Translations under genes and position numbers: made by a program | Notes under the pieces: model-generated | Seen by the model: only the letters and a program-made list of their open reading frames with translations | The model's database searches: none | What the model was told of the DNA's origin: nothing | In this document: piece by piece, positions 2,761-30,116 of the stretch | Layout: each line of letters begins with the position of its first letter | How positions within the stretch are numbered: position 1 is the first letter of the stretch | From: Vulcanimicrobiota bacterium | GTDB lineage: Bacteria > Vulcanimicrobiota > Vulcanimicrobiia > Vulcanimicrobiales > Vulcanimicrobiaceae | Assembly: GCA_963767635.1 (NCBI GenBank) | Contig: CAVYEM010000001.1 | Coordinates: 81,818-145,817, forward strand | DNA length: 64,000 nt | Reading direction: 5' to 3'

Positions 2761-5728
2761 GCGAGCTCTCCATTACGGAAGCGCGCACCGTCCAATTTCC
2801 TATGGTCGCGCACGTCGCGGAGATTGGCTGGACGCGACTCACGCCAGATGACGCAAAGGCAAAGCGTGGTGCCGAAGACGCGATGTTCTTTCGAGATGAT
2901 CTCTCGGCGAAACTGCGTGAATTCAACCCTTGGCTCAACAATGACTCGCTTCGGCAAATTGTCGAGAAACTCGAAGCACTGCGGCCGAGTATCGAGGGAA
3001 ACCGTGAGATGCTTCAGTGGCTCCGCGGCGAGCGGAGCTGGTACGACGAGGAAGAGAAGCGCCATCGACCCGTGAAAGCTCATCGATTTCGATCGGCACG
3101 GATGCAAACATGCTTTCACGTTACATGGGAATGGAAAATCAAGCCTCCAGCGCGTAAGGGCAATCGTGCGGATGTAATGTTCGCTGATCAACGGCATACC
3201 TGTCGTGCATCGTGGAGCACAAGAATCCGAAGGACGGCGATGCGATCGATAGAGGTATCGTGCAACTCCGGCCGATACGAGAAGGAAACACCAGAACTAA
3301 TGGCCGCTGCCGCAGATATTCAATGTAACCCATCTGCTGGATTACTGGTACGGCGTGACCTGGAATGCCACGCGACGCGGGATGACGCGATGGAAGGAGA
3401 GCGCCGGATGAAACTTATCGCTTTGCAGTGCAGTCATTTTTCGAGCGAACAGAGCTTCTTACGGACTCTGCAGCAATGGATATTGTTCTATGTTGAGGAC
3501 GACGAACTCCGCAAGTCCGTACTTCGCCAGCACCAGCGCCGTGCAGATCGACGCGAGTCATCGATCGTTGTGCCGACCGGCGAAAAGGCGCGGCCTCGAT
3601 GTGGCACACGCAAGGGTCAGGGAAGACTTTCACGCTGCTCACCGCGGCGCGGCTCGTTACTTGAAGATAAGAGACGATTCGCCAATGCGACAGTGATCGT
3701 CGTCGTGGACCGGACCGAGCTCGAAGGGCAGTTGAAGGGATGGGTGGACCGTCTGCTTGGTGAGATGCAGCAGCTGGACATTGCCAGTCGAGCGTGCCGA
3801 CGAGCAAGGCGGATCTTCAAGCGACTACTCGATCGCGGACTTCCGCGGCCTTAATCATTTCGATGATTCACAAGTTTGAAGAGGTCCGCAAAGCAGAGCT
3901 CGGAGCGAGACAACATGTTTGTCTTCATCGACGAGGCGCACCGCTCGGTCGCAAGGAACTGGGCACCTACCTTATGGCGGCCGCTTCCAAACTCGCACAA
4001 TCATTGGCTTCACTGGAACCCCAATTGCCCGAGGACAGCGCAAGGTCGAAGGAACGTTCAAGATTTTCGGGGCGGACGATGCAGACGGCTATCTCGACAA
4101 ATATTCGATTGCAGGAAACCATCGAGGACGAAACGACCGTGCCGATAAGGCACATGCTGGCGCCGAGTGAGATGACGGTCCCAGTGGAGCGAGCTGGATA
4201 AGGAATTCTTCGAGCTGGCTGGTACGAAGGGGTCACTGACGTTGAGGAGTTAAACAGCGTGCTTGAGAGTGCGGTTGCCCTTCGGACCTTCTTGAAGGCG
4301 GATGAGCCGAATGCGAGAATGTGGCGAAGCTTTATCGCGGAGCACTTCAAGCAAAATGTGCTTCCATTGGGATATAAGGCGTTCGTCGTTGCGGTCAATC
4401 GCGAAGCTTGCGCGAAGTATAAGCGCGAATTGGACAAGTTGCTTCCACCGAATGGTCGTGCCTATATACTCACAGAATGCCGCCGACATGATCGATCGTC
4501 CGCTTGTTGCCAAATATGCAGCTTTCCGAACGGGGCCAGGAAGACGAACATTCGGCGTCCTTTTCAAGAAGCCAGATCGAAGATCCGAAGATTGCTGATC
4601 GTCACTGACAAGCTGTTCACTGGCTATGATGCGCCGCTGCTCTATTGCCTGTATCTGGACAAGCCAATGCGCGACCACGTGTTGTTCCAGGCGATCGCGC
4701 GCGTCAACCGGCCTTACGAGGACGATGCGGCGAGCGAAGAAGGTTGGGCTGGTAGTGGATTTTGTCGGCGTACTGCGCGAACTGAAGAAGGCATTGCAAT
4801 TCGACTCTTCGGACGTAAGTGGCGTTATTGAAGGTCTCGACCTGCTGCATGGCGGAGTTCCTCAAGAAGATCGCGTGGCAAAGCGAAACATACTTGAAAT
4901 CGGCGATGGCGGAAGCGCGACGGACGAGCGGCTGGAAAAGCTTGTGTATGGGCCGCTTCCGAGATCCAGAAGCTCGAAAGACGTTTTTCGAGCGTACAAG
5001 GAGATCGAAGGATCTGTGCGAGATTTTGTCTCCTTCGCCGGAGCTGCGCGACCACATTCCGAGACGTACAAGCGGCTAGCGAAACTCTATGCCGCGGTGC
5101 GAAACGCATAGTCGACGAAAGTCGGCTTTACGGCCGATTTCGCTCACAAGACGCGCAAACTGATCGAGGAGAGCGCCGAGCACGCAAGGTCTGGAGCGAT
5201 TCAGTAAGAGCGTTACCTTCGATACCGCAACTTTGAATGTCTTCGGCGCGAGACCGGTTCAGACGAAGGTAAGGTCGTCAATCTTGTGAGAGGCTTGCAA
5301 AACGAGATTGAGGAGCATCCGGCGCAGTCGCGCCGTGCTCCAGTCTCTCAAAGACCGCGCCGAACGGATTCTCAAGAATGATGATCGGACGGACTACGAG
5401 CGCCAAGGCCGCGATGGAGCGAGCTGGAACGGCTCACCACGCAGAAAGCGGATGCAGAAAGAGCGGCTCGGAAAGCGGACTGTCGCCCCGGGCGTTCGGC
5501 GTGTTCTGGTCGTTGCGAGACGATGTGTCTCTCTCCGCGGCTGGAATCGACCCCATGCAAGTCGCGCGCGAGGCTCAGGCACTGCTGGAACGCTATCCCA
5601 ACGCCGCAGTGAACGCCGACGAACAGCGTCTCTTACGAACAGGGTTATATCGGCCGCTCCTTGCACTTTCGGCCGCCGACCTTAAGCGCATCGTGGAGCG
5701 TGCAATGTCGGCGCTCGCGATAGCGTAA
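2757..5728 (+). pseudogene. hsdR: Type I R-M endonuclease/helicase subunit HsdR, heavily frameshifted.
   Basis: Five pieces of HsdR lie in different frames. The N-terminus is ORF 2757. The DEAH box [10 protein letters not shown] is at 3918-3947. GFTGTPI is in ORF 3919-4170. [40 protein letters not shown] is in ORF 4259-4831. The C-terminal domain is ORF 5378-5728. Confidence 0.85.
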
Positions 5729-5734
5729 AGAACA

Positions 5735-6113
5735 TTGCGATCGTTCTCTTGTCATTTGTTCGACTCGTCGCGAATTAGGTATGTGAAGCAATCTGAGCGG
5801 CAGGCACTTCTGCGCCTTCGGCGCCGCGTTGTGCATTGGAGTGAGAAACTGGGCCTTACGCCGCGAGTCTTACGAATTCAACGCATGACTAGAAAATGGG
5901 GATCATGTTCTCCGGCAGGAACGATCACACTCGCCCGGGATCTCGCCAACCTCACTGAGTCGCTTCAGGACATCGTAATTGTGCACGGAGCTCCTTCATC
6001 TCCGAATGCGTAACCATGGAAGAGTGTTCCGCGCTTTAATGACTGCACACGTCCCGCATTGGCGGTCATTCGCAGCCTCAACAAGCCACGTCAAGCGCAC
6101 GAAAGTTGCGTGA
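5735..6113 (+). pseudogene. DUF45/YgjP-type zinc metallopeptidase remnant (an R-M-associated family). It is N-terminally short and has a frameshift near 5986.
   Basis: The ORF reads [18 protein letters not shown]. After a +1 shift it continues [28 protein letters not shown], which contains an HExxH motif. The stop is at 6111-6113. Confidence 0.6.
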
Positions 6114-6208
6114 AGAAATGGCGGCCTACAAACGGGTCGCCTCGAGCGGCCGGGTGCTTCGCTTCCTAGTTGCGTTGCTTTCGCCCAACCAATTTAACGG
6201 AACGCTAG

Positions 6209-6682
6209 TTGCTGATGTTCAGTACTAAGCTGTGGGCAAACACAGTGAGAAAGCGCGTGCTGCTAGATGAGCACCTGTCTGAAGATATTGCCGGAGTATT
6301 CGGCCCGCGTGACCATGTATATTTGGCGAAGGACGTGGACCTCAAGGGAAAGCCCGATCGCGACGTTATTGACTTCGCAATCAATAAAAAATGCCTGATC
6401 ATCACAAACGACGCGGGTTTGGTGAACGACTACCGCAACCATCCGCAGCGGCGCTCGAAACGCGGCATCCAGTTTTTCTACGGCCTGATTTATGTGCGCG
6501 CGGACTCTGACGTCGCACGTAAGCGACACATCGCCATTGCTGTAAGAGAAATGGCGTGGGGCGAAAGTCGACAGCATGATGATCTCGTGATCGTGTCGCG
6601 CGACGGGAAGACGGAACACTATCGGCTTTGTCACGCAGAGTGTGCCGCGGAGTTTGACAAGCGCGAAGGCAGAAGCGGGTAG
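6209..6682 (+). CDS. DUF5615/Mut7-C-like PIN-like domain protein, with no DUF433 partner.
   Basis: The motifs LLDEHL...DVIDFAINKKCLIITNDAG are typical of the DUF5615 family. It resembles the second copy at 17367-17741. Confidence 0.5.
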   Translation: MLMFSTKLWANTVRKRVLLDEHLSEDIAGVFGPRDHVYLAKDVDLKGKPDRDVIDFAINKKCLIITNDAGLVNDYRNHPQRRSKRGIQFFYGLIYVRADSDVARKRHIAIAVREMAWGESRQHDDLVIVSRDGKTEHYRLCHAECAAEFDKREGRSG

Positions 6683-6722
6683 CAGATGGCATACGGCGGG
6701 GTTGTTGCCGATACTCGGGCAC

Positions 6723-6974
6723 ATGGACTACGAAATGACGGAAGGCGAGGCTGCCTTACTCGACTGGGTTCTTGGGCCGTTTGACGGGATCGAGATTGAG
6801 CCAGGACTTTACGCCTTCAAGACAACTAATCAAAACGGCCTCGTCCAGTATTGTGTCGAGACGGAGGAGCGTTTAATCTGGTCTGCGCTCGACCTATACT
6901 ACAGTGATGAGGCTATCGAAGACTTCATCAAAGCCTATTCACTTCGTAAGAATGCCGATATGGTGGGCGCCTGA
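6723..6974 (+). CDS. Hypothetical small acidic protein.
   Basis: ATG-initiated ORF (MDYEMTEGEAALLDW...) inside ORF 6642-6974. I recognise no family. Confidence 0.3.
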   Translation: MDYEMTEGEAALLDWVLGPFDGIEIEPGLYAFKTTNQNGLVQYCVETEERLIWSALDLYYSDEAIEDFIKAYSLRKNADMVGA

Positions 6975-7149
6975 ACGCCGTGAGGCATGGGCCGTCGTTA
7001 CCCGTTCCGGCGGAACAACCGTCATATGCTACACGGAGTCCGAGGAAGAGGGGCGCGCAGCGTTGGAGCGCCGCGGTCTGAACGACGGCGGAGTACGCTT
7101 AGCGCGCGTTCGAGCAGACCTTAGTACGGGAAATGAAGTCGAGGTGTAA
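6952..7149 (+). CDS. Hypothetical small protein.
   Basis: ORF MPIWWAPERREAWAVVTRSGGTTVICYTESEEEGRAALE... overlaps the end of the previous ORF. I recognise no family. Confidence 0.25.
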   Translation: MPIWWAPERREAWAVVTRSGGTTVICYTESEEEGRAALERRGLNDGGVRLARVRADLSTGNEVEV

Positions 7150-7335
7150 TGATATGGCTTCGAACCGAAGCTCTGCCGTAGAAGGGCTCGTAAATGCGTG
7201 CGCATTGCTCGTGTGAGCCCTGCCAACTTTCGCGACCCGCGTGTCCGTAATTTTACTTTCCACGAACCTATCGCAGCTTAGAAAGCGCGCCGTGTGTTTC
7301 TTTTCCCTGCGCGCTAGGGTTCCGCACCGCGCGTC

Positions 7336-7373
7336 GGTCCGTCCGCAGTTTTATGCGGCGGACCGCCGCGCTA
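7336..7373 (+). repeat. Copy 1 of a conserved hairpin element (ggtccgTccgca-gtttta-tgcggcggacc, then cgcgcta).
   Basis: It is near-identical to 8496-8534. Both have an 11-bp stem with a 1-nt bulge and a 6-nt loop. Confidence 0.8.
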
Positions 7374-7415
7374 CCACGGCCGATACAATGACGCACGCTC
7401 CAGGAGGGCAACAAG

Positions 7416-7665
7416 TTGACGGAAACCGGCAATACCCCAGTGAGATCGGCCGCTGAGCTGCTCATCGCTCGACCATGCTAGGATTTGAAACGGCAAAGCG
7501 AATTGGAGAGTGGAAGACTTCACTAGACGATCTAACGGGCAAAAGTATCGTCTCAGCGCAGGTGAATAACCGGCACATGGAACTCGTGTCGGGCGACGGC
7601 CTTACGTGTCGTTCTACGGCTTGATCGAGGCCGTGCCGCCAGGCGGGACAAGTCTCTACGACTAC
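7416..7665 (+). pseudogene. Decayed paralog of the small ORF at 8560-8811, with two frameshifts.
   Basis: The SD caggagg is followed by TTG at 7416. The segments GKSIVSAQVNNRHMELVSGDG and RFYGLIEAVPP align with GKTIVLARVDRRHIELVTNDG and RFAFYGLIEAVAP of the intact copy, but they lie in different frames. Confidence 0.6.
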
Positions 7666-8009
7666 GCCTCTGCGAACTCGCGCTATAGGTGCTCCTTGCG
7701 GCCCTCTTCGCGAGAATTGTTTTTCAGGCGGTATTAACGGCAAAAAAAGCCTCGCCAAACCACTCGTGAAAATCCGCGAAAAGTTGTGGAAGACGCGCGC
7801 AAAGCGTCTCCTCTCGCGCGCTCAAACTGAGGCCGTGCTTTTGGGTTCTCAGAGACCAGAAACGTTCGTCCTCGTTTCCTCGATTTAGCTAGTCGAGATA
7901 GACGAAATGGCGGCAAACCGCGTTTCAGCCCGATGGGCGGCGCCCGGACGTACAAAAGAAAGACAGGAAGGATTGGCGGCAAAGTTGGACCTCAGCCGAT
8001 ACTCGCGCT

Positions 8010-8276
8010 ATGAAAAAGGGAGCGAGAATCGATGTGCGCCTCAGCGCAGCAGAAAACCAACGGTTCGAACGACGGCGGAAAGCCGCACCGCAGGGGTTTA
8101 ACCGGGCTAAATATGCGCGGTCGCTACTGCTGGCGGACCGCCTGATTCCGGCCGAGCACCTCGTGAACGAAATGCGCGAACTACGGTTGGCTCTGGCGCA
8201 TCAGATTCCCCAGTCGGTAACAGCGCGCGTAGAGGAGCTTTACTGCGCTGCACTTGATGCGGTCATCAAGAAGTAG
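8010..8276 (+). CDS. MobC-like ribbon-helix-helix mobilisation accessory protein.
   Basis: RIDVRLSAAENQRFERRRKAAPQGFNRAKYARSLLL matches the MobC pattern RxxxIxVRLSxxE...YxRxxLL. An XRE-HTH-like remnant (QEGLAAKLDLSRYSRYEKG) lies just upstream in another frame (7907-8040). Confidence 0.5.
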   Translation: MKKGARIDVRLSAAENQRFERRRKAAPQGFNRAKYARSLLLADRLIPAEHLVNEMRELRLALAHQIPQSVTARVEELYCAALDAVIKK

Positions 8277-8495
8277 TAAGGGTATGGGCGCAGCGCGTTG
8301 GCGACTGGGCCAATAGTTCGGAAATTCCGCGGCGACCGCAACGGGCCGGTAAAGGCATCGCGGGCACCTGTCGCGGCCGCGATGGCACATCGCTTATCAT
8401 GTCGAGACCGGCAACTCGGATGTCGGCGCTAGTGCTGTGTGGAGCTCGCTCCTAACTCAGCGTTCCAAACGGAGCACGTTAGTACCGTAGCGCGA

Positions 8496-8534
8496 GGGTC
8501 CGCCCGCAGTTTTATGCGGCGGACCGTCGCGCTA
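8496..8534 (+). repeat. Copy 2 of the conserved hairpin element. It is followed by TATAGT (8533-8538) and an SD.
   Basis: The sequence is gggtccgCccgcagttttatgcggcggaccgtcgcgcta. It has the same arms and loop as 7336-7373. Confidence 0.8.
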
Positions 8535-8559
8535 TAGTCCTACTACAGGAGGTGCTGAA

Positions 8560-8811
8560 TTGGACGAATCCCTTGAACCTGGAACCGGCTCGCGGTCAGA
8601 GCACCTGATCCGCCAGGCATCCTACGACTTTGAGCGCGACGCCGCACTTCGGCGCTCGGCTATCGAAATACAGAAGATTGCCGGCAAAACTATCGTCTTG
8701 GCCCGAGTCGATCGCCGGCACATCGAACTCGTCACCAACGACGGCTGTCGTTTTGCGTTCTACGGGCTCATTGAGGCCGTTGCACCTGACGAAGCGGGCC
8801 TGTTTGACTAG
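8560..8811 (+). CDS. Hypothetical 83-aa protein, the intact copy of the duplicated cassette.
   Basis: The SD caggagg lies 8 nt upstream of a TTG start. A decayed paralog at 7416-7665 argues that this is a real gene. Confidence 0.5.
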   Translation: MDESLEPGTGSRSEHLIRQASYDFERDAALRRSAIEIQKIAGKTIVLARVDRRHIELVTNDGCRFAFYGLIEAVAPDEAGLFD

Positions 8812-9381
8812 CAACGTCCGTTACGGCATTTGAGCACGAACAAGCCAAAGAAATACCGCATTACCGCTGGGTCGCAGCCGGGCACCTCCGCGGATTCCGA
8901 CACGGCACACGGCGACTCCAAACTTGTGCCGATACTCGGTCCACAATGAACGACAAGCACAGCGTACGAAGCCGCGGTTTTAAACTTAAGGTTCGGGTCT
9001 GTTTCCGGAGCCGGCCGACATGCCGCACAATCCTGGTTGATGTCCATGCAGCGTACTGGCACTTCCTCGATTTGGCGTTTTCGTTGGGGGAGCGCAATGA
9101 GCCCGGTTTCATCCGGAGTCACGAATCAAGACGGGTTCCACCTGCACTTCAAAACGATCTGAAAGAACCGATGCTCTACTTGCTCGATAACGGCAGACCT
9201 GGCGCGCCATACGACATCTATCTGAGCGACGCCTCGTTTCTCATCGACGATGTGACTTCATGCAGTTCGTCGCCGGTCACTAACTCCGAGCAGCCGCGGC
9301 TGCCCGGCTTTTCACTTGAGTCGACGCAACTGCCAAACCAAACGCGAGCGTTGGCGCTCGCGGCGCCATGCCTGAGAAACC

Positions 9382-9924
9382 ATGGAAACTAAAAAAGCAA
9401 ACCTTCAAGCGGAGTTCACGCAAGCGCCAGACGTTGTTAAACCGCGTACTTTGGATGACGCGCTCTTCTGCGAATCGAGCGATCCAGGAATCGAAGCTGC
9501 AGCCGCGGTCCAATCGACGCGGAGCATTCCGGAACGCAAGTTTCTGGACATCGATGAGGCTGGAGTCTACCTCGGCTGTTCAAAACGCACGATCTACAAG
9601 CTGTGTGCGTTGAGGAAACTCGCGTACCACGAAGCCGCAGGCGTTCGTTGGTTTCTAAAAGAGGACTTGGACGAATACATCGCCAGTGGACGCGTGGACG
9701 TGTTATGGTGGCCGGCGGCACTCGAGGAAAACCGCGTGAGCGCGAGCAGTTTGCCTTCGTGGTGGCAAAAAGGTATGCGCCGGAAAAGCGGTGGCCGAAT
9801 CGAGTGGCGATTCTATGTTGTAACGCCAGACCGGCTCAAAACAGGTGTCGGCTTACGGACGTACCATCACGGAACTGAAGGCGGAACGGAAGCGCTTGGA
9901 GCGTCTCTACGAGTTTGCTCCTGA
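9382..9924 (+). CDS. Excisionase-family (MerR-like) helix-turn-helix DNA-binding protein. Its tail runs into the integrase arm-binding region.
   Basis: FLDIDEAGVYLGCSKRTIYKLCALRKLAYHEAAGVRWFLKEDLDEYI is a typical excisionase-type HTH. The same frame continues to RKSGGRIEWRFYVVTPD. Confidence 0.55.
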   Translation: METKKANLQAEFTQAPDVVKPRTLDDALFCESSDPGIEAAAAVQSTRSIPERKFLDIDEAGVYLGCSKRTIYKLCALRKLAYHEAAGVRWFLKEDLDEYIASGRVDVLWWPAALEENRVSASSLPSWWQKGMRRKSGGRIEWRFYVVTPDRLKTGVGLRTYHHGTEGGTEALGASLRVCS

Positions 9925-10927
9925 GCGTATCACGCTAAATGACCTGCTCGATCGCTACATTGATGAGAAGCGTTCAAACAAGAAGATCGATCAACGTAAA
10001 GTCGCCGATACCGAAAGCCGCTTCGAGCGGTTGATTCGGCCTCAACTCGGTCGCCTGACCATCGGTGCCCTGTGTATGAACTGGGCCGTCTTAGGCGAGC
10101 ATTTTCGGTCGCTCTGTAACAAGCATCCGAACAGCTACGTAGTCCGGCGCGTTTTTGATGAATTAAGGGGCGCGTTCAAGTATGCCGTCGCGCGTCAATT
10201 GTGCGCGATCAATCCGGTTCTACACTTGGAGCGTCCGAAGTACGCAGCGCAAAAGAAGCGCCAGCCTTTCACACTCGATCAGGTCCTGGATCTGCTCATC
10301 AAAGCCGTCGGACGGGACCGGGTTATCATCGCCTTCTTAGTTATGACCGGCGTGCGGACGTGGAGCGAGATGAGCGGCCTTCGTGTCCGGGACTGCAACT
10401 TATTAAAGAAAACCGTGCAACTTAGTACGTTTGTCCGCCGCGATGAGAAAGGGCGGCCGGTTGAAAAGCCAGAGATCGCCGGCGAACCGCGCGGCAAAAC
10501 ACAACGAGCCGAGCGGGAGATACCGCTGATTGAACCGCTAATCGATATGTTGGAGCCTTACATCCGTTCCGCCGGCCTCGGGCCTGATGACTACTTATTT
10601 CCGAATAAACGTGGCGGTCTTCTCAGAGGCAACAACTGGTGTCGGCGCGTGTGGAAGGATCTCGCAGAGGCTGTTGGTAGGCCTGAAGCCGTGCCATACG
10701 AGCTTCGGCACACGACCAATACGTTGCTCGCCGCACTTGGGGTCGACGTAGGGACGCGGGCGGCAATATGTGGTCACTCGACGGCGGTTAACGAATCCGT
10801 ATACACAAAGAGCACTCTCGAAGCCAAACGCGAAGCTCTGGACAAGTTAGGCGTGCTCTTTCCGAAGATTGCGTCGATGCCTACGGCACCTGACGAGCGA
10901 GAAAGTGGCGCAGAAGGCGCCGCATAG
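9845..10927 (+). CDS. Tyrosine recombinase / phage-type integrase. The true N-terminus probably lies upstream in another frame.
   Basis: Catalytic-domain signatures are present: RxxxL region (GLRVRDC), ELRHTTNT, ICGHS and VYT (R..H-x-x-R..H..Y). Confidence 0.9.
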   Translation: MSAYGRTITELKAERKRLERLYEFAPERITLNDLLDRYIDEKRSNKKIDQRKVADTESRFERLIRPQLGRLTIGALCMNWAVLGEHFRSLCNKHPNSYVVRRVFDELRGAFKYAVARQLCAINPVLHLERPKYAAQKKRQPFTLDQVLDLLIKAVGRDRVIIAFLVMTGVRTWSEMSGLRVRDCNLLKKTVQLSTFVRRDEKGRPVEKPEIAGEPRGKTQRAEREIPLIEPLIDMLEPYIRSAGLGPDDYLFPNKRGGLLRGNNWCRRVWKDLAEAVGRPEAVPYELRHTTNTLLAALGVDVGTRAAICGHSTAVNESVYTKSTLEAKREALDKLGVLFPKIASMPTAPDERESGAEGAA

Positions 10928-11397
10928 CAAAACACGTACAGCAAAAGAGGAAATGTGTTGAAGACCATCATCGAAGCAATCGTAGAATTTTTTGGATCGC
11001 TTCTGGGGATTCGAAGCGTAATCGATCGACCTCTGCGCAGGTCGTCAGACTCGCGATCACAAGGATGAGTAGTAGTTCCGAGTTTGAGGGAGATACTACG
11101 TGGACTGTGGGACCTAATCGAGGGTCTCTGGAATGAAGAACGCGTCCTCGCTCGTAACGCGGAGCCGCCACTTAATCGCGTTCCGACGGCCGATGGACTG
11201 AGTTATCGAAGATAACTATCGCCGGCGTCTGCCACGTCGGATAGAGCGTACCGCAATGTCCTCTCACTGCTGTCGTTTTGCGGTACTTTGCGAACGTCGC
11301 CTCAATGAGGTTATCTCCGGGGGTGCGAGACGGACGCTCAGAGGTCGAAAAATGCGTCTCCCGCGTCCTCCCGGCCCCTTTCATTGTCGCCAAACGG

Positions 11398-11426
11398 TTG
11401 ACAGCAGTTCGAAAGCTGCATAACCT
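11398..11426 (+). promoter_or_regulatory. Sigma70-type promoter candidate for the XRE/ImmA pair.
   Basis: TTGACA (11398-11403), a 17-nt spacer gcagttcgaaagctgca, and TAACCT (11421-11426). The ATG of the XRE gene is only ~11 nt downstream, so the transcript would be nearly leaderless. Confidence 0.4.
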
Positions 11427-11436
11427 ACGGGACAGC

Positions 11437-11771
11437 ATGAAAACTCTTGGTGAGCGAATTCGGGAGTAAGGGAGCAAAAGGACATTTCGCTCCGTGAACT
11501 CGCTAGGGTCATTGGCACGTCGGCAGCGTTTCTTTCCGACGTAGAACTTGGCCGAAGGCACCCCTCACCGCCGGTGCTCAAGGATTTAGCGAAGCGGTTA
11601 GGGACGACCGACAAGGATCTTGAGCAGTTCGACCGACGGCCGCCTATAAAGGATCTGCAACGTCGAGCTGCCATCAATCCCGCGTACGGCGTTCTCCTTC
11701 GAAGAGTTCTCGAGGACGACGATCCTGAAGCCGTGATTAACTGGCTTGAGAAACGTCGCAAGAAATCATGA
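11437..11771 (+). CDS. XRE-family HTH transcriptional regulator (ImmR/CapH-like), with a 1-nt frameshift near 11467.
   Basis: MKTLGERIRE is followed, after the shift, by REQKDISLRELARVIGTSAAFLSDVELGRRHPSPPVLKDLAKRLG. That is a canonical HTH_3 domain. ORF 11574-11771 is the downstream part. Confidence 0.75.
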
Positions 11772-12463
11772 GGACACGTAGCATAGCCGACGGGCCATTC
11801 AGGGAGCGGCCGTACTACTCGCTTGATGAAATCGAGCAAATGTGCTGGGATGAACTCCATAAGGCTGGGCTCTATCCAGAAACACCGTCCCGGATTCGTA
11901 TTGATCGCTTTGTTGAAAAGCGGTTTAACGTAAGCATCACTTACGATGATCTACCCAAGGGCCTGCTCGGCTTTACAGAGTTTGGCCCGAAAGGTGTTGT
12001 TGCCGTGGTCGTTTCTAAGACGCTCGATGACGGTTATCAGAGTTCCGAACGCCGAATCCGTACCACACTGGCGCACGAATCTGGCCACGGCCTTCTGCAC
12101 ACCTATCTCTTGGCGCTTGGCGCTGAGACGCGGTCAATGTTTGAGGGTGCCGTCGATGATCGTCACCGGCTATTATGTCGCGAGGACGCGTCTTCGAACT
12201 GGAAGCCTGGCAAGTACGACGGCAAATGGTGGGAGCATCAGGCTAATCTTGCAATGAGCTCGTTGCTATTACCGCGCGGGCTCGTGGATCTCGCGCTTGA
12301 TCGGATGTTGAACTCGAGCGGTTCGCTTGGTGTTAAGACCGTTGCAAGCGACCGCCGCAACGACGCGGTGAATACGTTAGCAGGCGTATTCGATGTAAAT
12401 CCAGTGGTCGCTCGGATTCGGCTCGACGCCCTCTACCCGGAGAGCGCGCAGTTGACGCTCTAA
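11768..12463 (+). CDS. ImmA/IrrE-family (COG2856-type) zinc metallopeptidase.
   Basis: HExxH motif LAHESGHGLLH. There is a 4-nt start/stop overlap with the XRE gene, which is the classic HTH-plus-metallopeptidase pairing. Confidence 0.85.
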   Translation: MRTRSIADGPFRERPYYSLDEIEQMCWDELHKAGLYPETPSRIRIDRFVEKRFNVSITYDDLPKGLLGFTEFGPKGVVAVVVSKTLDDGYQSSERRIRTTLAHESGHGLLHTYLLALGAETRSMFEGAVDDRHRLLCREDASSNWKPGKYDGKWWEHQANLAMSSLLLPRGLVDLALDRMLNSSGSLGVKTVASDRRNDAVNTLAGVFDVNPVVARIRLDALYPESAQLTL

Positions 12464-12500
12464 AATTTTTTCGCTATACTGTAAGCTGACGGAAGCTTAC
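12452..12500 (+). promoter_or_regulatory. Strong sigma70-type promoter plus a downstream inverted repeat (operator candidate) for the Ubl operon.
   Basis: TTGACG (12452-12457, inside the last immA codons), a 17-nt spacer, and TATACT (12475-12480). A perfect 7-bp inverted repeat follows immediately: gtaagct-gacgga-agcttac (12481-12500). Confidence 0.5.
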
Positions 12501-12598
12501 GATGTTGCCCGCGTGCGGCGTGATGGACCGGCTGATTCAACGGGTCTTTGCTTGTCGCCACAACTACCTGTAACGCCACCCCTGTAAAGGAGTAAAGC

Positions 12599-12867
12599 AT
12601 GTCTGAAGAACCCCATGTCCTCGGCGTCTCAGTAATTACCCCGAAGGGGCTGTATCCGAACAATGAGGACTATCGCCGGGTCCATTCCAACGAGAAGATT
12701 CAGGCTCTCCTCGATTTAGTGAAGGAAGAGCAAAAGATTACCAATACCGATGGCTGGGTCGTTACGGTTGGCGAACGGGACGTCAACCCGGCCAAGACGT
12801 TCAAGAAGAAGACTTGAAGTGCGTGGTCGACATGGAATGGCACAAAGGCGAGGGTGGCGGTGGCTAG
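12599..12867 (+). CDS. Ubiquitin-like beta-grasp protein (BilA-like). It is ~89 aa after correcting a 1-nt frameshift near 12800, and it ends in GEGGGG.
   Basis: The SD aaggag lies 6 nt upstream of ATG 12599. The annotated frame stops at 12817 (..FKKKT*). The adjacent frame reads QEEDLKCVVDMEWHKGEGGGG* with its stop at 12865-12867, overlapping the next gene's start. Confidence 0.6.
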
Positions 12868-13315
12868 TGAAGCGATCGCGCGCCCGCTCTTCGAGCAAGA
12901 CGTAGGTCACCTCACGGAGGCAGCAGCGAAAGTAATGGGCGTAGTCGTAAATGCAAGAGAGTGGCCTGTGTTTGACGTCACGATCTTGCACAAGACGCCC
13001 GTGCGGCTCCGCTTCACGTGTAAGGAGTGGGACGCATTACCGCCGTCGATTGCATTCCTAAATCCGGACGGGAGTCCTTACACGGGCAATGTGCCGCCGG
13101 GTAACATTTTCAATAAGAACTTAGGGGACGTTTTCATCTGCATGCCGGGATCTCGCGAGTATGAGACCGTTGGGAACCATCACGCCGATGACTGGGAGAA
13201 CTATCGTGGCAAAGACGATATGACGATCCTCGGAATTTTTCAAAAGCTCGTCGCGCATGGCTTAGAGGGATTTGAAACTCCGTTGCCCGCGCGCGGTGCT
13301 GCATTGCACGATTGA
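12854..13315 (+). CDS. E2-like (UBC-fold) ubiquitin-conjugating enzyme homolog (BilB-like).
   Basis: Size, operon position, and the arrangement FLNPDG...GDVFICMPGSREY (an HPN-like motif followed by a candidate catalytic Cys). The call rests on context and pattern, not on a strong motif. Confidence 0.5.
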   Translation: MAVASEAIARPLFEQDVGHLTEAAAKVMGVVVNAREWPVFDVTILHKTPVRLRFTCKEWDALPPSIAFLNPDGSPYTGNVPPGNIFNKNLGDVFICMPGSREYETVGNHHADDWENYRGKDDMTILGIFQKLVAHGLEGFETPLPARGAALHD

Positions 13316-13736
13316 GCTGATGCAGGAAGCTGGGCGGTCCGAAATGGAGCGCGTGGTTTTTTGGCTTGCGCACAGCCCGACCGACCTCGGTCTTATTGTT
13401 CAGGCCTATTCGCCTCAACAAACGGCGGCGTTTGATTTCTTTCACATTCCGAAAGAGGCAATGCGAGCGCTGATGCAGCACCTTCGCAAAGGACACCTCT
13501 CGTTGGTTGCGCAGGTGCATTCGCATCCGCTAGAGGCTTTCCACTCTCGGGCCGACGATCGCGAAGCGATCGTGCGTCACGAGGGTGCCCTCTCGATTGT
13601 CGCGCCTCATTTTGCACTATCGTTGACCGCCCAGTCTTTTAAAGATGAGTGTGCGTTCTTTGTGCTAACGAAGGAAGATAATTGGAGAGCGATTCCTGCT
13701 AGCGATCGTGATTCGTTTTTCGAGGTTTTGGCATGA
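13272..13736 (+). CDS. JAB/MPN (JAMM) metalloprotease (BilC-like deconjugating or maturation peptidase).
   Basis: The JAMM signature is present: conserved Glu (SEMERVVFWL) and then QVHSHPLEAFHSRADD (HxH...SxxD). Confidence 0.85.
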   Translation: MKLRCPRAVLHCTIELMQEAGRSEMERVVFWLAHSPTDLGLIVQAYSPQQTAAFDFFHIPKEAMRALMQHLRKGHLSLVAQVHSHPLEAFHSRADDREAIVRHEGALSIVAPHFALSLTAQSFKDECAFFVLTKEDNWRAIPASDRDSFFEVLA

Positions 13737-15100
13737 ACGCGCAGCGCGAGAACCGCCTGATGGTCGCGCATCTCTTAGGAATTGCTGAGGAAGATGCTTC
13801 AACTCGTCTTGCAGCGACGGTAGCAATAACGACCGATGGCTCGTCGGAAATAGCGTATGAGTTTACTGAAATCATTGGAAGAACGTTGACCGTTGTAACT
13901 GATGGTCGGGCCGACGTCGAGGTCGTGTTTAGCTCCGAATCATCGTCTCGATCCGAAACACGATTCTTTGTATCTTTAGATGCCGACGGTCTTGTAGTAT
14001 CGCGGGAAGGCCCATCTGTGATAGAGCCGTGCCACCCGTTACTTGCTGCGATCGCGTCTTGTTACGTCGCAGGAGTTGTTGTCTCGGCTGCGGTGGGAAT
14101 TCATATGGGACAACCCTCACCATTCCGCGTCGACTTCAAGAAACTTGGTATTTCGGCCGATATGCTGCAGAAACGTCCATTTCTAGAGGACGCTGCGCTC
14201 GCTGGGGCGGGAGCGGTCGGTAATGGATTTCTTCGGGCCTTGCGGCATATCGACGTGCATGGGTCGCTCGCAGTTGTCGATCCCAAAAAAGTCTCAGATG
14301 GCAATACCAACCGATGCCTTTATTTTACGGATGAAAGCATAAGGAACGAGAAGGCTGAGGAGCTTTCGCAACGAGCGCAGGCCGACTTCAAAAATCTGAA
14401 ATTGATGTCGTATGTTGGGGATTTTCAGACTATGTTGAGAGTAGGGATCCGAAACGGGTGCGACGGGTCTTTGTGGGAACTGACAGCCGTCGGGTTCGTC
14501 GCCGTATTCAGGAAGAGCATCCCCTTGAGGTGATCGACGCCTCTACAAGCGATGCTTCGGAAATAATTGTCCATTCTCACCGCTACCCTACGCCGTATGC
14601 GTGTCTTGGATGTATCTATAAGCACACACCGGTCGAAGATAGTCGTGAGCTGGAAATTTCTGCCGCACTGGGCTTAACCGTTGATGATGTTCGCAAGGAC
14701 CGAATCGATGCTGAAATGGCTGAGAAGATCCTCAACAAGTATCCTCACCTCACCATCGAAGACATCGTTGGTACGGCATGCGATAGTCTGTTCCGTAGCC
14801 TATGCAGCGAAATGGCATTGCAGCTTCCGGGTCAGGAGCAGGTTCTCAGCTCCCTTTGCTTTCGTTTCAGCCCTTGCTGGGTGCTTGATGGTCGTCGAGT
14901 TGTTGAGATTTGAGAGTCGTGATTTCCAATTCAACTACTTCTTCACCGACCCATGGATGCCGCCGCATTTAGAAACACGCATTAGGAGGCTGAAGGCTCA
15001 GAATTGCATGTTCTGTTCTCGGCCGGCGAACTTCGAGGTAATGGACGCGCTTTGGGCGGACATCCTAGGCCGTCTGATGTTGAATGAGGGTACTTCTTGA
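13733..15100 (+). CDS. E1-like ThiF/MoeB-family adenylating enzyme (BilD-like), with frameshifts near 14429 and 14850.
   Basis: GAGAVGNG (GxGxxG), VVDPKKVSDGNTNRCLYF (DxxxVxxxNxxR), two CxxC pairs (CLGC and CMFC), and SAPFAFVSALAGCLMVVELLRF. The pieces are ORFs 13733-14533, 14458-14913 and 14681-15100. Confidence 0.8.
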
Positions 15101-15218
15101 CGTAGCGCGCGCGGCGCTACAATGGTTTTCTGCGCCGTTTGCTGCACGCAGGAGCCCCAGACCCACCAGCCGTTCGACGTTCGATCGACGGGTGGCAGTC
15201 ATCCGGCGATTCGGAGCC

Positions 15219-15452
15219 ATGACGACCGACCCGCCGCCGATGCATTGGGCTCCGTGCCATGCGAACACAATCAAATACTTCAAGGCGTCGCTGACCTGCA
15301 GCAATGGACACTCAATGACATTACGCGGGCACAGCGTTTCTGCAGCCGGAATTGTCCGACCCAGTGTAGTGTGTCCCGCCATAGGCTGCGATTTTCACGA
15401 CTATGTACGTCTCGATGAATGGAGTTTTGGTGATGTCGCCGCTCGGAGGTAG
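15219..15452 (+). CDS. Hypothetical 77-aa Cys/His-rich (zinc-ribbon-like?) protein downstream of the E1 gene.
   Basis: The ATG at 15219 opens MTTDPPPMHWAPCHANTIKYFKASLTCSNGHSMTLRGHSVSAAGIVRPSVVCPAIGCDFHDY. A TTGACG/TACAAT promoter-like element lies at 15097-15123. Coding status is uncertain. Confidence 0.25.
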   Translation: MTTDPPPMHWAPCHANTIKYFKASLTCSNGHSMTLRGHSVSAAGIVRPSVVCPAIGCDFHDYVRLDEWSFGDVAARR

Positions 15453-16515
15453 ACCCGAATGGCCTGAACGCTCGTTTCGCGTCGGCAGAAAGAAGCGTCA
15501 ACGATGCCTTCTTGGGGATTCAGAAAGAGCGGGTGGACGCTGTCGAGCTTAAAGCGTGCGGCGCCGCTATTGGTAAACGGATACCCAACGCTCGTGCTCC
15601 ACTTTGAGCGATGAAACGACTTCGGCAATGAGATTGTCGTCGATAGACTCCTGGATTGCCGTTGCCGAATGGGTTCTTTGTTCGGAGTGCGCCGTACCGG
15701 CCCAGCAACGTCGGCATATTCCCGAAACTGAAGATCGTTGTGATACTGAATATCTGGATGGAATGATTCGTGGCGATACCGATGTTGTGAGTCTGCGGCG
15801 CCGGAAGATGAGGTGAATAAGCGCGCGGCCAACACGCCCGTTGCCGTCGATGAAGGGGTGGATCGTTTCGAACTGGGCATGCGCGATCGCGGCTTGCGCT
15901 ACCGTCGGCAGCGAGGAATCGTTGCAAAATGCGCATAGATCATCGAGAAGCGGATCGACCATTTCCCACGGTGGGGAACGAAGGATGCAGAGCACGGATC
16001 GTAACTGCTGCCACCGATCCAATTCTGTTGCGTGCGGTCTGTCCGCCGTGCTCTTTGAGCATTGGTGGTTCGAGCAGACGTCGATGCGTTTCGCGAAGGA
16101 GCGCAGGCGTGATCGAACTACCCCTGTTTCCCGCTTGTATTGCATAAGCCATCGCATCAATATTTGCGAGCACTTCGGCCGCGGTTGCATCGCCTGAATC
16201 GTTGCCTTGTTGCCGCGCAGCGTCGGCTAATAGCAGCCGACGAGGGTCGACTACAAAGCCTTCGATATGGGACGAAACAACCGATTCCGCACGCAACAAG
16301 AGGCGAGCCAGCGCTTCCACGTCGGCCAGCACGGTTGCCGTTCGATCGAGGTCCAAGATGGTGTGCTCGGCATCGGCAACGTCAGCCGCTTCCTCGCCGC
16401 CGATTGAAAGGTGGGTTTGGCCAGACCCATCGGGGATATAGACCGAGTAGGGGCTGCCTTGGTCATGCCGGGGGTACTCCCGTTCCGCGGGTAGGCCGCC
16501 AGCGGCCCAAGCCAA
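15401..16515 (-). pseudogene. Fic/DOC-family protein, with at least four frameshifts. The 3' end is uncertain.
   Basis: The Fic_N region is LLLRAESVVSSHIEGF. RTQQNWIGGSSYDPCSASFVP lies in a third frame. The intact core motif HPFIDGNGRVGRALIHLI is in ORF 15567-16190. Confidence 0.8.
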
Positions 16516-16587
16516 AGAATCCGGTTATTAAATCCGTTCGGACGTCAAAGAACCTTTTAATGTTCTAGAGGCTACCGTTGGAGTACA

Positions 16588-17145
16588 ATGGGAGCCATGG
16601 ACAAAGAAGAAGCCGATGTCCGAAGAACTGCAGCGGTCCGAATGCTAGAGAAGGCGGCGGCAACCTACGCAAGTCACCCTGTGGACTTCGTTGCCTACTT
16701 GCGGACGGTGCAGCAAAAGTATCCGGATGTCGCGATAGTCGCCGAGATCAAGTCGCTGGTAGACAGTTCCGAGCGCCACGAGGAGGCTTTGGGAAAGGTC
16801 CGTTCTTTGCTAAAGAGCGCCTCAGAGGTGACCGAGCGACTACGTGTCGAGGTGAATGCGACCACTGAGCGGGCGCTTGCGGAACGCCGACGTCGCCGTC
16901 GGCTGCAAATAGAGATTCGTCCGACGGAAGAGCATATAGTCGCGCGATTGATGGAAGCATTCAGCACAAACGAATCCGATGCAGGGCGGCAGATGCTGCA
17001 GATCGTTGGGCGTCTCGATAGATCTCGTCGACCGTGGTTTCATAATCGCGGCCCACCCCGCGACAGACGAGACTGCTGTAGATGCGCTACCCGACCTCAC
17101 CCGCGCGATGCGTCGCGACGTCTACCAATACCGCCATCTCGTTGA
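16588..17145 (+). CDS. Hypothetical protein. The C-terminal Arg-rich tail is probably not real.
   Basis: The ORF has a plausible helical N-terminal ~130 aa. I recognise no family. Confidence 0.3.
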   Translation: MGAMDKEEADVRRTAAVRMLEKAAATYASHPVDFVAYLRTVQQKYPDVAIVAEIKSLVDSSERHEEALGKVRSLLKSASEVTERLRVEVNATTERALAERRRRRRLQIEIRPTEEHIVARLMEAFSTNESDAGRQMLQIVGRLDRSRRPWFHNRGPPRDRRDCCRCATRPHPRDASRRLPIPPSR

Positions 17146-17398
17146 ATTACCCCATCCATGGAGGCGACGACTGTATTTCAAGGGCCGCCGTCTTACGGTG
17201 TCACAAGTGATCGATCAGATGCGAGCGAATGGATGGAGCGTCGATCAGACGGCGGACGAGTTCGATCTTACCTCCGCTGCCATTGCCGAAGCGCTTGAAT
17301 ATGCTGTGCGGAATGAGTCCTTGCTGAGGGAAGAAGCAGCGGAAGAGCGGCGCCGCGCGCGAATGGGTGCCACGCAACGTGCGTCTGCTGCTGGATGA
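17108..17398 (+). CDS. DUF433-domain putative antitoxin.
   Basis: RRLYFKGRRLTVSQVIDQMRANGWSVDQTADEFDLTSAAIAEALEYA matches the DUF433 pattern. The start is uncertain (the ORF opens at 16979). Confidence 0.6.
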   Translation: MRRDVYQYRHLVELPHPWRRRLYFKGRRLTVSQVIDQMRANGWSVDQTADEFDLTSAAIAEALEYAVRNESLLREEAAEERRRARMGATQRASAAG

Positions 17399-17741
17399 AT
17401 GCTGCGCACACAAGGCGCTTGTCAGCGAACTAAAAGCGCGCAACTATGATGTGGCTCGAAGCATCGATCTTGTTGGTGAAGGCGCGACCGATCCGATGGT
17501 TTTCGCGTGCGGAATTAGCGAGAATCGAATCCTGATCACTGCGAACTGTGGCGACTTCATCGCGCTCGCGGAAGCGAACGACGAGCATCCCGGCCTGATG
17601 CTGATATATCCAGACGACGGCGGAAATGCCATGCCCACGGCTGCAATAGTGAAGGCTGTAGTGAACGTGCGGCAAAGCTTCGGTGAAGACTTTGCCGCGC
17701 TCCGTGGACAGCGCATTCCGCTGCCGCAGTACGTCTGGTAA
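17367..17741 (+). CDS. DUF5615 PIN-like putative toxin, paired with the DUF433 gene.
   Basis: VRLLLDECC...DPMVFACGISENRILITANCGDF. It overlaps the DUF433 gene end, which is the usual TA-style arrangement. Confidence 0.6.
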   Translation: MPRNVRLLLDECCAHKALVSELKARNYDVARSIDLVGEGATDPMVFACGISENRILITANCGDFIALAEANDEHPGLMLIYPDDGGNAMPTAAIVKAVVNVRQSFGEDFAALRGQRIPLPQYVW

Positions 17742-17924
17742 GGCGCCCGAAGGCTAAAACGGCCGCGAGTCAGGCCGGCGTCGCCGCCAATTGTCTGCAC
17801 GATTCGGTGCGAAGCGCGTTCGGGAGTGCAAACGAAAAAAGGTCGTCGACGCTTAGCAATGGAGGCCAAAGTAGACATACTCCGCAAACTAGGCATGCTC
17901 TTTGGGCCCTTTCACAGTGGGAGG

Positions 17925-17948
17925 GGACAAGGGTCAGGACAAGGGTCA
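17925..17948 (+). repeat. Tandem duplication of the 12-mer ggacaagggtca (x2), upstream of the tRNA.
   Basis: Read directly: ggacaagggtca ggacaagggtca at 17925-17936 and 17937-17948. Confidence 0.9.
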
Positions 17949-18002
17949 AGAGCTGATGAAGGGTGTAGTGCTATGGGAATCCGTCATATAAAATAACGTC
18001 AC

Positions 18003-18078
18003 GGGCGATTAGCTCAGCTGGGAGAGCGCCTCCCTTACAAGGAGGATGTCGGCGGTTCGAGCCCGTCATCGCCCACCA
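18003..18078 (+). tRNA. tRNA-Val (anticodon TAC) with an encoded CCA.
   Basis: GGGCGATTAGCTCAGCTGGGAGAGCGCCTCCCTTACAAGGAGGATGTCGGCGGTTCGAGCCCGTCATCGCCCACCA folds as a cloverleaf. The anticodon loop is CTTACAA and the T-loop is GGTTCGAGCC. Confidence 0.95.
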
Positions 18079-19120: not shown

Positions 19121-21206
19121 GTGAATCGTATCGACTCGCGAACGCGGTACGCTGCGGTGATACTCGCGATCGCGCTGCTCGCTTCGCTCTTCGTAGCGAT
19201 CAGCCGCGTGAAGATCGAGCAGGACACGCGCCGGGTCGAAATCGCGATGGACTACAACGACTTCCTCGCGCTCTCGCGCTCGTACAACTACAACCCCAAC
19301 GCGTTTCTCCTGCGGCTACGCCGGGCCGGGCTTACCTCGCTTGCGCTGACCGAAGAGCTGGGCGGCTCGCTGACCGGTTCGAGCAGCAAAAACGCCTACG
19401 CCGTTTCGGGCATCGCGCTGCTCAATACGGCGCGCGTTTCACCGTTGGCGCAGCCGACGCTCGCGGCTCTGGTACGCAACGGATCTGTGCGCGAGGGCTC
19501 GGTCTACCTGCTGGTCTACGACCGGCAGACGTTTGCGCGCTACCTGCAACAGCTGCCGCTGCACTTCGAGCGTTCGGGGATCGACGTGCTGCGTTCTGCA
19601 CTCGCCTTACGTTATCGCCATCCGCACGCAGATCGATTACTTCAACGCGATGGGCCTGGGGATTCCGGCCGATCAGATTCGCCTCGCTCGCAGGCTCGGA
19701 TTCTTCGTCGTACCGCGCTTTCAAAACGACGAGCGGCTGCAGGACGGACAAATCGCCTCGATGTTCTCCGATTTGCACGCGGGCAAATGGGTCTCGACGG
19801 TTATTTTCTTCGGGCTGCGCAATCAAGTGCTGGGCTTTCCCGATCATTTGCAGGATACGGCCGGCGTCTTCAACGCGCGCAAGAACATGAACTTCGGCGA
19901 GATCGAAGTGTACGATCAAAGCCAAGTGCAAAAGGGAAACGCCGCGCTGGCCAACCTCATTCCGGGCCGCACCGTGCGCGTTCAGGCGATTGGCAGAGTC
20001 GGACTCGATAAGCTCACGCTGCCGGACATCGTCGCGCGCTACGAGCTGGGCGTGCGCGAGCGCAACGTGCGCGTCGTGTATCTGCGGCCGTTCGCGCACG
20101 AGTACAACAAGCTCTCGATCGAACAGACGAACGTCGAGATGGTGCGGCAGATCGCCGCCGATCTGCGGCGTTCCGGCTTCGAACTCGGGCGCGCTTCGCC
20201 CATTCCGCTCTATCGCGGCAACGGCCGCGTGCTGATCGGGATCGCGGCGCTCGCCGTGCCGTCGCTGTTCGTGTTGCTGCTGGGCTGGTACGGCTGGTAC
20301 GGCCGCCGTGGTCCGCTGCTCGCCGCCATTGCGTATGCGGCCACGATCGGTGTCTACGCCGCCGGCATCGCGTCGCACCACGATCTGCTCGGGCGTTCGA
20401 TCATTGCGCTTACCGGCGCGCTGCTGTTCGCGGTCGCGGCGTTTACCGCGCTCGCCGGGGCGTTTTTCGAAGAACCGGCCTCCTCGACGCGGCGGCAGCT
20501 CGCGCGCAGCCTGGGCTGGACGCTGCTTGCAACGGGCGTTGCGCTGCTGGGCGCGCTGCTCGTCGTAGGCGTCATGAGTTCGCCGCTGGCGATGGAGGAA
20601 GTGGAGCCGCTGCGCGGCGTGAAGCTCATTCTCGCAGCTCCGCCGGTGCTCGCGCTGGCGCTCTATCTGTTCACCGATCGCTTCAACTCGGGCATGCGCG
20701 GAGCGCGTGAAACGCTGGTCGCGCCGATTCGCATCTATCAGTTGATTCTGGCCGCCGTCGTGCTGGGCATCGGCGCCCTCGTCTTGATGCGCAGCGGCAA
20801 TCAGAGCGACATCTCGCCCTCGCCGTTCGAACTAACCCTGCGCCATCACTTGACCGAACTGCTCAGCGTGCGCCCGCGCTTCAAAGAATTCGTCGTCGGC
20901 TTTCCGTTTCTCATGCTGCTGCCGGCGCTGCGTTGGGATCATCGGCGCAGCGTGGGCATCTTGCTCTCGCTGGCGATCGGGATCGGCATCGGCGACGTCA
21001 TCGACACGTTTTCACATCTGCATACTCCACTACTCATCTCGCTGCTGCGCGTGTTCAACGGGCTGGTCATCGGCGTCATCATCGGCGCCATCGCCGTCGC
21101 CGTCTATCGCCGCTTGATCGGCCGGCGCCAACGCCCGGATCACGGATCGTTCGGCGCATCCGCCCGTGAAACGGAATTCCTCGGCGCGCCAACCGTCGAG
21201 GTGTAG
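19121..21206 (+). CDS. Large polytopic membrane protein (DUF5693-like, linked to csaB), with a frameshift near 19604.
   Basis: ORFs 19121-20011 and 19533-21206 join at GIDVLRS / PYVIAIRTQIDYFNAMGLG. The C-terminal half has many transmembrane segments. The family name is from memory. Confidence 0.55.
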
Positions 21207-25074: not shown

Positions 25075-27322
<2,248 letters not shown>

Positions 27323-27345
<23 letters not shown>

Positions 27346-29398: not shown

Positions 29399-30055
29399 GC
29401 ATCGCCGAGCGCTACGCCCGGTTGCGTGCAGAAGTGCCGCCCGGCGTGATGATTGTCGCGGTCTCCAAGTTGCAGCCGGCGCAGGCCGTGCGTGAAGCGA
29501 TCGACGCGGGTGTGGAAAACATCGCCGAAAATTACTTGCAGGAAGCGCGCAAAAAGTTTCAAGCGCTGCAGCTGGGCAACGGCGCGCGCAAGCATTTCGT
29601 CGGCCACGTGCAGACGAACAAAGCCAAGGCGATCGCGACGCTGTTCGATCTCGTGCAGAGCGTCGACCGGCCCGAAGCCGGCGCCGCGTTGGCCAAAGCG
29701 GCCGGCGCGCTGGGCAAGCAATTGCCGGTGCTGCTGCAGATCAACATCTCGCCGACCGAGCGCTACGGATGTCCGCCGCCGCAGGCGCAGCGTCTGAGCT
29801 GAACAGCTGCGATCCTATTCGACTCTGCGGCTCGACGGAGTGATGGCCATCGGACCGATGACCGCAGATCGCGCCGCCATCGCGCACGCCTTCGCGCTCG
29901 CTGCTGCCGTGTGGCGCAACGTGGGCGGTCCCGTGCTTTCCATCGGGATGTCCGACGACTGGCGCGAGGCGGTTGAGGCAGGGTCGACGATGATTCGGCT
30001 GGGAACGAGCCTCTTCGGACCAAGACCCGGGCGCCCGGTGTCGAAGAACGCATGA
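29395..30055 (+). CDS. yggS: YggS-family pyridoxal-phosphate homeostasis protein, with a frameshift near 29797.
   Basis: VAVSKLQPAQAVREAIDAGVENIAENYLQEA...HFVGHVQTNKAK is followed, after the shift, by AEQLRSYSTLRLDGVMAIGP...LSIGMSDDW...GSTMIRLGTSLFG. There is a GTGA overlap with lgt. Confidence 0.85.
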
Positions 30056-30116
30056 ATCTCTCTCACTGTTGACACGCCGCCGAGCTTGGACGGGTGTCAT
30101 CGTGAGGTACGAGGCT

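Follow-up and report, generated by a model that had tools for sequence, protein, structure and literature searches.

Does the ubiquitin-like protein (Ubl) gene of this locus encode a protein that ends on a conjugatable glycine and, if it does, why does the assembled DNA place that glycine out of frame with the rest of the gene? The window, meaning the whole 64-kb stretch of DNA that was analyzed, carries at 12599 an ATG preceded by an upstream AGGAG and opening a 72-codon ORF. Read directly, its 3′ codons are ACG TTC AAG AAG AAG ACT TGA, so that the annotated product stops at NPAKTFKKKT (TGA at 12815–12817) with no terminal glycine, just as an earlier note on this DNA had described. That note had also pointed to the neighboring frame, and direct reading of the −1 frame from 12799 does give VQEEDLKCVVDMEWHKGEGGGG, closed by TAG at 12865–12867. 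The codons from 12799 are GTT CAA GAA GAA GAC TTG AAG TGC GTG GTC GAC ATG GAA TGG CAC, and the same frame finishes with AAA GGC GAG GGT GGC GGT GGC TAG. To pass from the ORF frame to the tail frame, either a base has to be added or the reading has to slip by −1. The gene and its lesion can be set out as follows.

12599–12867, + strand: Ubl (BilA-type) gene, with residues 1–68 in the frame of ATG 12599, residues 69/70–89 in the −1 frame, and a GEGGGG-TAG end
12800–12812, + strand: interval bearing the missing base, from alignment A1 and from codon comparison with the related loci L006 and L001

When 1.84 billion representative proteins were scanned exhaustively by phmmer with the repaired 89-aa model, 78 proteins were returned at E ≤ 1e-3, 16 of them at E ≤ 1e-10, the window's own 72-aa product being P0001; word-indexed searching, whether with this model or with the E2, returned the window's own proteins only. 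In 74 of the 78 the alignment crosses the shift and reaches query residue 89. When the closest homolog, the L001 Ubl, was used as a tblastn query against the window, two HSPs were obtained, one in frame +2 (12605–12811) and one in frame +1 (12802–12864), the second with 16 of 21 residues identical (76%). In an alignment of 59 sequences (A1), P20 and G87–G89 are invariant and W53 and L73 nearly so, and in A2, the set of the 12 closest sequences, W81 never varies. The family C terminus has the motif W(H/G)(K/P)xEGGGG, and every aligned homolog carries W-x-x-x-E-GGGG with 0–10 further residues after it (A1). Comparison with homologous Ubl genes, which had been suggested as a check, finds the tail frame conserved, and the aligned homologs carry the GGGG tail. 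These comparisons show that the hidden tail does belong to the Ubl gene, an agreement far beyond chance. The proposal that restoring one base near 12800 yields an 89-aa protein holds good, and the restored tail is the conserved C terminus of a real family.

The missing base can be placed closely. In all homologs exactly four residues separate the conserved TF from the conserved L (A1), which confines the lesion to 12800–12812. Over this stretch L006 reads ACC TTT CGA GAA GAA GGG TTA and L001 reads ACG TTC CGT GAG GAG GGC CTG; with the best placement, the window reads ACG TTC [N]AA GAA GAA GAC TTG, and the missing base would thus lie directly 3′ of TTC 12800–12802. The lost base was probably an A, AAA having contracted to AA. 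The site near 12800 given in the earlier note therefore stands, and the glutamine (CAA) that it restored there is a little less likely than lysine (AAA), since the homologs carry arginine at this position; sequence alone does not decide between the two, and AAA appears only slightly the more probable. If the shift is an artifact, the expected sequence at 12800 is TTCAAAGAAGAAGAC.

The restored protein is predicted to fold as anticipated. An AlphaFold2 model of the repaired Ubl, built from A1, has a mean pLDDT of 92.3 and a pTM of 0.80, and runs through a β hairpin, a short strand, a helix, three strands, and a flexible tail. Foldseek searches of the PDB matched it to FAF1-UBX, ISG15, SUMO, and ubiquitin with probability 1.00 and TM scores of 0.6–0.7. 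The β-grasp fold that the earlier note had predicted for the corrected peptide is thereby borne out at the level of a confident model, and, given the AlphaFold2 and Foldseek results, the objection that the corrected peptide might fail to adopt this fold falls away. The product of the gene, real or ancestral, is accordingly modeled as an 89-residue β-grasp protein with the end EWHKGEGGGG.

Pfam, NCBIfam, and PADLOC contain no family for this Ubl, and TUG-UBL1 gives a weak match in 6 of the 59 family members. The BilA of Ensifer aridi, as represented among PDB sequences, was matched neither by the 59-member profile nor by P0018 alone (at E ≤ 1 or E ≤ 10); because Type II Ubls are described as highly diverse (PMC10557695), this missing similarity is not a strict exclusion. 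The family also includes longer proteins: the P0024/P0025 set contains one 3621-aa protein with eight Ubl-matching stretches, and in several other homologs, of ~240 aa, the Ubl forms the C terminus of a longer protein. Proteins of the P0024/P0025 types may be multidomain or fused Ubls, as reported for Type II BilA.

What kind of system does this Ubl serve? Type II BilABCD operons, formerly CEHH/6C, are defined by the order Ubl–CEHH/E2–DUB–E1 (Chambers et al., PMC10557695), and CapH/CapP regulators are associated with 15% of them (PMC10557695). The window contains, around the Ubl gene, the following features.

11437–11771, + strand: CapH-like XRE-family HTH regulator, with a one-base frameshift at ~11464–11470
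11768–12463, + strand: CapP-like M78/ImmA metallopeptidase (HExxH), intact (PADLOC capP, 1e-08)
12854–13315, + strand: E2 (BilB, CEHH/Y4jH-like), intact, with a GTG start (Pfam PF14455)
13272–13736, + strand: JAB/JAMM peptidase (BilC), intact, with HSHP...S..D (Prok-JAB, 1.8e-07)
13733–15100, + strand: E1 (BilD), comprising E1-N, a ThiF adenylation domain, and two CxxC pairs, with two frameshifts
15084–15452, + strand: small Cys/His-rich ORF of 122 aa, directly 3′ of E1, with no Pfam family

The order Ubl–CEHH/E2–JAB DUB–E1, all on the + strand, is that of the published definition, and the locus is a Type II BilABCD operon, just upstream of which lie CapH/CapP-like regulators. Since the system has already been described as Type II BilABCD, the finding is correct rather than novel. 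The same gene order is present in five related loci (L001, L003, L004, L005, and the JGI 3300050821 locus), in three of which the E1 gene is contained whole and encodes an intact protein of 451–472 aa. A1 was too diverse to serve as the query in the search for related loci; the 12-sequence subset worked. A further locus, L006, from an Eremiobacterota metagenome-assembled genome (MAG), is syntenic with the window in its M78 gene, its intact 447-aa E1, and its 120-aa Cys/His-rich ORF. With L006 included, E1 is intact (447–472 aa) in the four loci that hold it whole, and the Ubl lies in one frame in L001, L003, L004, L005, and L006.

The individual assignments rest on the following evidence. Three-frame translation of the CapH-like gene shows that MKTLGERIRE, followed by a stop, continues as REQKDISLRELARVIG in the −1 frame, a shift that corresponds to the loss of a single base near 11465; in the 111-aa protein obtained on repair, residues 4–63, a stretch that includes the junction, match HTH_31 (6e-14) and HTH_3. 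The CapP-like protein scores 21.0 bits (3e-04) against Pfam Peptidase_M78, just below the 22-bit cutoff, and is 59% identical over its full length to its L006 homolog. For PF14455 the E2 reaches 28.3 bits (cutoff 25) through a match confined to the last 47 residues of the model, and it was also recovered by tblastn with the L001 and L006 E2 proteins. Against the E2 (BilB) of PDB 8tyz_C/8tz0 (E = 5e-4), its FICMPGSREY aligns with FLCMAGVREYH, the segment that holds Cys138, and the cysteine of FICMPGSREY is a putative catalytic residue. The JAB gene matches PADLOC BilC at 4.2e-15 over model positions 13–164 of 168 and the DUB (BilC) of PDB 8tyx_B at 1.8e-10, with HSHP...HS..DD aligned. The E1 contains Pfam E1-N (1.2e-19) and ThiF (6.7e-07) and its CxxC pairs lie in ACLGC and NCMFC; its N-terminal 236 aa have no PDB sequence match, BilD included. 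One base is missing from the E1 gene at ~14440–14455 and one is extra at ~14849–14862. Because these shifts are of opposite sign, the middle 410 nt are out of frame, with the segments on either side of them in one common frame; tblastn with the intact E1 proteins of L001 (472 aa) and L006 (447 aa) accordingly gave three collinear HSPs in frames +2/+1/+2, without internal stops, and the catalytic and zinc motifs are kept in all three segments. The 122-aa ORF, with the pattern PPPMHW.PCH...C..GH...CP..GCDFH, is 44% identical (E = 8e-34) to an ORF of ~120 aa in the same position in L006 (7503–7865) and may represent a fifth, zinc-binding component of the operon within this Bil subclade.

The overlap between the Ubl tail and the next gene, which the earlier note had recorded, proves to involve a CEHH-family E2 whose start codon, the GTG at 12854, falls within the GGGG codons, and it recurs in relatives. 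Within 12854–12867, GGT GGC GGT GGC is read in the +1 frame of the Ubl as GTG GCG GTG GC, giving M-A-V-A. A nested E2 start is likewise found at 8275–8288 of L001, at 6272–6294 of the JGI 3300050821 locus, and at ~313–347 of L003, where an upstream GTG is in frame with the called TTG at 348. This recurrence in several relatives suggests a conserved translational coupling of Ubl and E2.

By inference from the characterized E. aridi system, the biochemical function of the operon can be outlined. The E1 (BilD) would adenylate the terminal glycine of the Ubl and hold the Ubl as a thioester, from which it would be transferred to the cysteine of the CEHH-type E2 (BilB) and then conjugated to target lysines within an antiphage defense; the JAB peptidase (BilC) would strip the conjugates. 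In Type II systems the Ubl has a universally conserved glycine, and BilC trims the residues beyond it, which are variable and number at most nine (PMC10557695). A conserved C-terminal glycine with 0–9 residues after it appears in the window Ubl only when the missing base is restored. Of the 58 A1 homologs, 12 have no residue beyond the last glycine, 18 have one, 12 have two, and 16 have 3–10, and a Ubl that ends on glycine is therefore a common natural state. Since the stop codon of the window Ubl directly follows the last glycine, no C-terminal trimming would be required, and the idea that this Ubl could do without JAB processing is a plausible one. In the one operon of this kind that was examined, that of L004, whose Ubl (P0019) ends in GGGG, the JAB gene is retained, which fits the second published role of BilC as a deconjugase.

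Why, then, is the tail out of frame? The Ubl gene is not alone in the window in this respect. Split genes were detected by a codon-usage scan followed by Pfam checks, GC3 frame plots being too noisy, and homology confirms at least 13 frame splits across the 64 kb. Among the island genes, one shift falls in the CapH-like gene, one in the Ubl gene, two in the E1 gene, and at least two in the neighboring Fic gene. The affected features outside the operon are these.

15567–16515, − strand: Fic/DOC gene (Fic_N + Fic, HPFIDGNGR) with at least two frameshifts; the C-terminal part looks scrambled
19121–21206: DUF5693 gene, split (Pfam model positions 1–100 and 112–607)
26433–27345: S4/pseudouridine synthase gene, split (Pfam coordinates contiguous across adjacent frames)
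About 29400–30060: yggS, probably split
37290–38856: gpmI, split (iPGM_N positions 1–130 and 138–217)
45710–46892: NAD-dependent epimerase gene, split (Pfam coordinates contiguous across adjacent frames)
49797–53354: mfd, in three ORFs and hence with two shifts (Pfam coordinates contiguous across adjacent frames)

This distribution points to an assembly-wide indel problem, at roughly one per 5–6 kb. The genomic setting also has to be considered. The operon lies in an island with a GC content of 0.55 versus 0.63, which occupies positions 1–18000 of the window and is bounded by a tRNA-Val gene at 18003–18078; no attachment-site repeat of this tRNA gene was found elsewhere in the window. Besides the Bil operon and the Fic gene, the island contains fragmented type I restriction-modification genes (1–5 kb), a tyrosine integrase (9845–10927), and DUF433/DUF5615 toxin–antitoxin-like pairs.

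We favor an assembly indel error over a biological cause as the origin of the Ubl shift, with a probability of about 70%, because many genes of the window, housekeeping genes included, show similar one-base shifts. The combination of indels alone, their reach into housekeeping genes, and shifted segments that look selected is the signature of an indel-prone (long-read) assembly, and the 2.47-Mb length of the source contig fits a long-read assembly. The main competing explanation, that the mutation is genuine and that the Bil operon and its island neighbors form a recently inactivated, decaying defense island, is in our judgment unlikely, and it nonetheless draws on several observations. Under it, the cell would make only the 72-aa, tailless, nonconjugatable Ubl and no full-length E1. 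The density of shifts peaks in the horizontally acquired, low-GC island, with six events in a ~5-kb stretch at the Bil and Fic genes against about one per 6–7 kb in the core, a ~5-fold excess that could have real island decay as an alternative source; the type I restriction genes at 1–5 kb likewise look fragmented, and defense islands turn over quickly. Moreover, the shifts that can be localized lie in runs of 2–4 nt, none in a long homopolymer, and one E1 insertion falls outside any run. Such sites are not the textbook long-read signature and weigh against an artifact. Against decay, gpmI, mfd (twice), the pseudouridine synthase gene, and probably yggS are split alike outside the island, and a free-living genome would be unlikely to tolerate splits in such housekeeping genes. 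Neutral decay should also produce substitutions and stops far in excess of indels, and yet at least 13 frameshifts are accompanied by no stop within a gene: the codon-model scan of the window for in-frame stops, whose training set was core genes and whose sensitivity drops in the lower-GC island, flagged two ordinary gene ends only. Furthermore, the out-of-frame segments retain 45–54% identity to intact homologs and keep their motifs, and the M78, E2, JAB, and 122-aa ORFs are all intact. An independent view of the locus was sought by searching metagenome contigs for the exact DNA pattern spanning the shift; there was no match, and so no sister strain that shows the unshifted sequence. The databases searched contained no second assembly of the locus, and an intact copy was never seen.

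A third explanation keeps the DNA as assembled and makes the shift functional: programmed −1 ribosomal frameshifting at AAG AAG AAG would yield full-length Ubl at low frequency and so gate the conjugatable amount. The needed shift is indeed −1, the triple-lysine AAG repeat (12803–12811) occurs only twice in the window, and a 6-bp hairpin, TTCAAG/CTTGAA, brackets the site. The sequence G ACG TTC AAG AAG AAG ACT TGA nevertheless contains no X XXY YYZ slippery heptamer, and the local fold of −22.8 kcal/mol is close to the shuffle mean of −20.2 (z = −0.98). In addition, the Ubl is single-frame in the five loci examined and all 77 homologs (the window ORF excluded) are single-ORF, the E1 of the same operon would need two shifts of opposite sign, and frames are also shifted in unrelated housekeeping genes. 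Lacking a slippery heptamer, significant structure, and conservation, programmed frameshifting was rejected as a very improbable account of the site. A variant, in which the Ubl and E1 shifts are real and the Ubl shift is passed by low-level −1 slippage at AAG AAG AAG, is to our minds just as far-fetched; were it true, conjugatable Ubl would be rare, and recoding would act as a safety catch on a ubiquitination defense that is potentially toxic to the cell itself.

Collectively, these analyses add one more Type II BilABCD operon, probably carried by an Eremiobacterota-like genome; the Ubl of this operon belongs to a W-H-K-x-E-GGGG clade and, in the window, ends directly on the reactive glycine. 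On the favored reading of an assembly error the consequence concerns annotation: here automatic annotation mis-calls the Ubl as a 72-aa tailless protein and splits the E1, and a survey would therefore count the operon among those without a conjugatable Ubl. No Ubl was found in 17% of the operons surveyed by Chambers et al. (PMC10557695), and some of these could reflect similar annotation losses. If instead the shifts were real, the operon would be a dead defense system.

Among the closest known systems is the Type II operon of E. aridi TW10 (PMC10557695; PDB 8tyx, 8tyz, and 8tz0), which shares with the window the gene order Ubl–CEHH/E2–JAB DUB–multidomain E1, a single β-grasp Ubl with a conserved terminal glycine, and an E1 that carries E1-N (an inactive adenylation domain), ThiF, and two CxxC pairs. 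The E2 and DUB of the window are detectably homologous to BilB and BilC. CapH/CapP-like regulators, present in 15% of the published operons, and a defense-island setting are further features held in common with Type II operons. The two systems also differ in several respects. The window Ubl belongs to the W(H/G)(K/P)xEGGGG clade and has no detectable sequence similarity to BilA, and, whereas E. aridi BilA ends in Gly97-Ala98 and is trimmed by BilC, the window Ubl ends exactly on glycine. The published CapH/CapP genes are divergent, whereas those of the window are codirectional and upstream. The closest genome match of the window Ubl is L006, an Eremiobacterota MAG and not one of the Rhizobiaceae. 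In the window the E1 is followed by a conserved Cys/His-rich ORF of 122 aa, and the Ubl and E1 are frameshifted as assembled.

The Type I BilABCD (Bacterial ISG15-like) system (Hor et al., bioRxiv 10.1101/2023.09.04.556158) agrees with the window in gene order and in its four-component logic. Its Ubl, however, consists of two β-grasp domains, and its E2, E1, and DUB fall in clades apart from the CEHH type (PMC10557695), while in the window the E2 belongs to the CEHH family and the Ubl consists of one domain. Eukaryotic ubiquitin, ISG15, and SUMO share with the window Ubl the β-grasp fold (Foldseek TM 0.6–0.7), partners of the E1, E2, and DUB types, and a flexible C-terminal Gly-Gly for adenylation by E1, even though sequence identity is only 10–24%. 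The eukaryotic tail is (L)RGG, and the protein is made as a precursor; the window Ubl has GGGG instead and is made with this tail already exposed.
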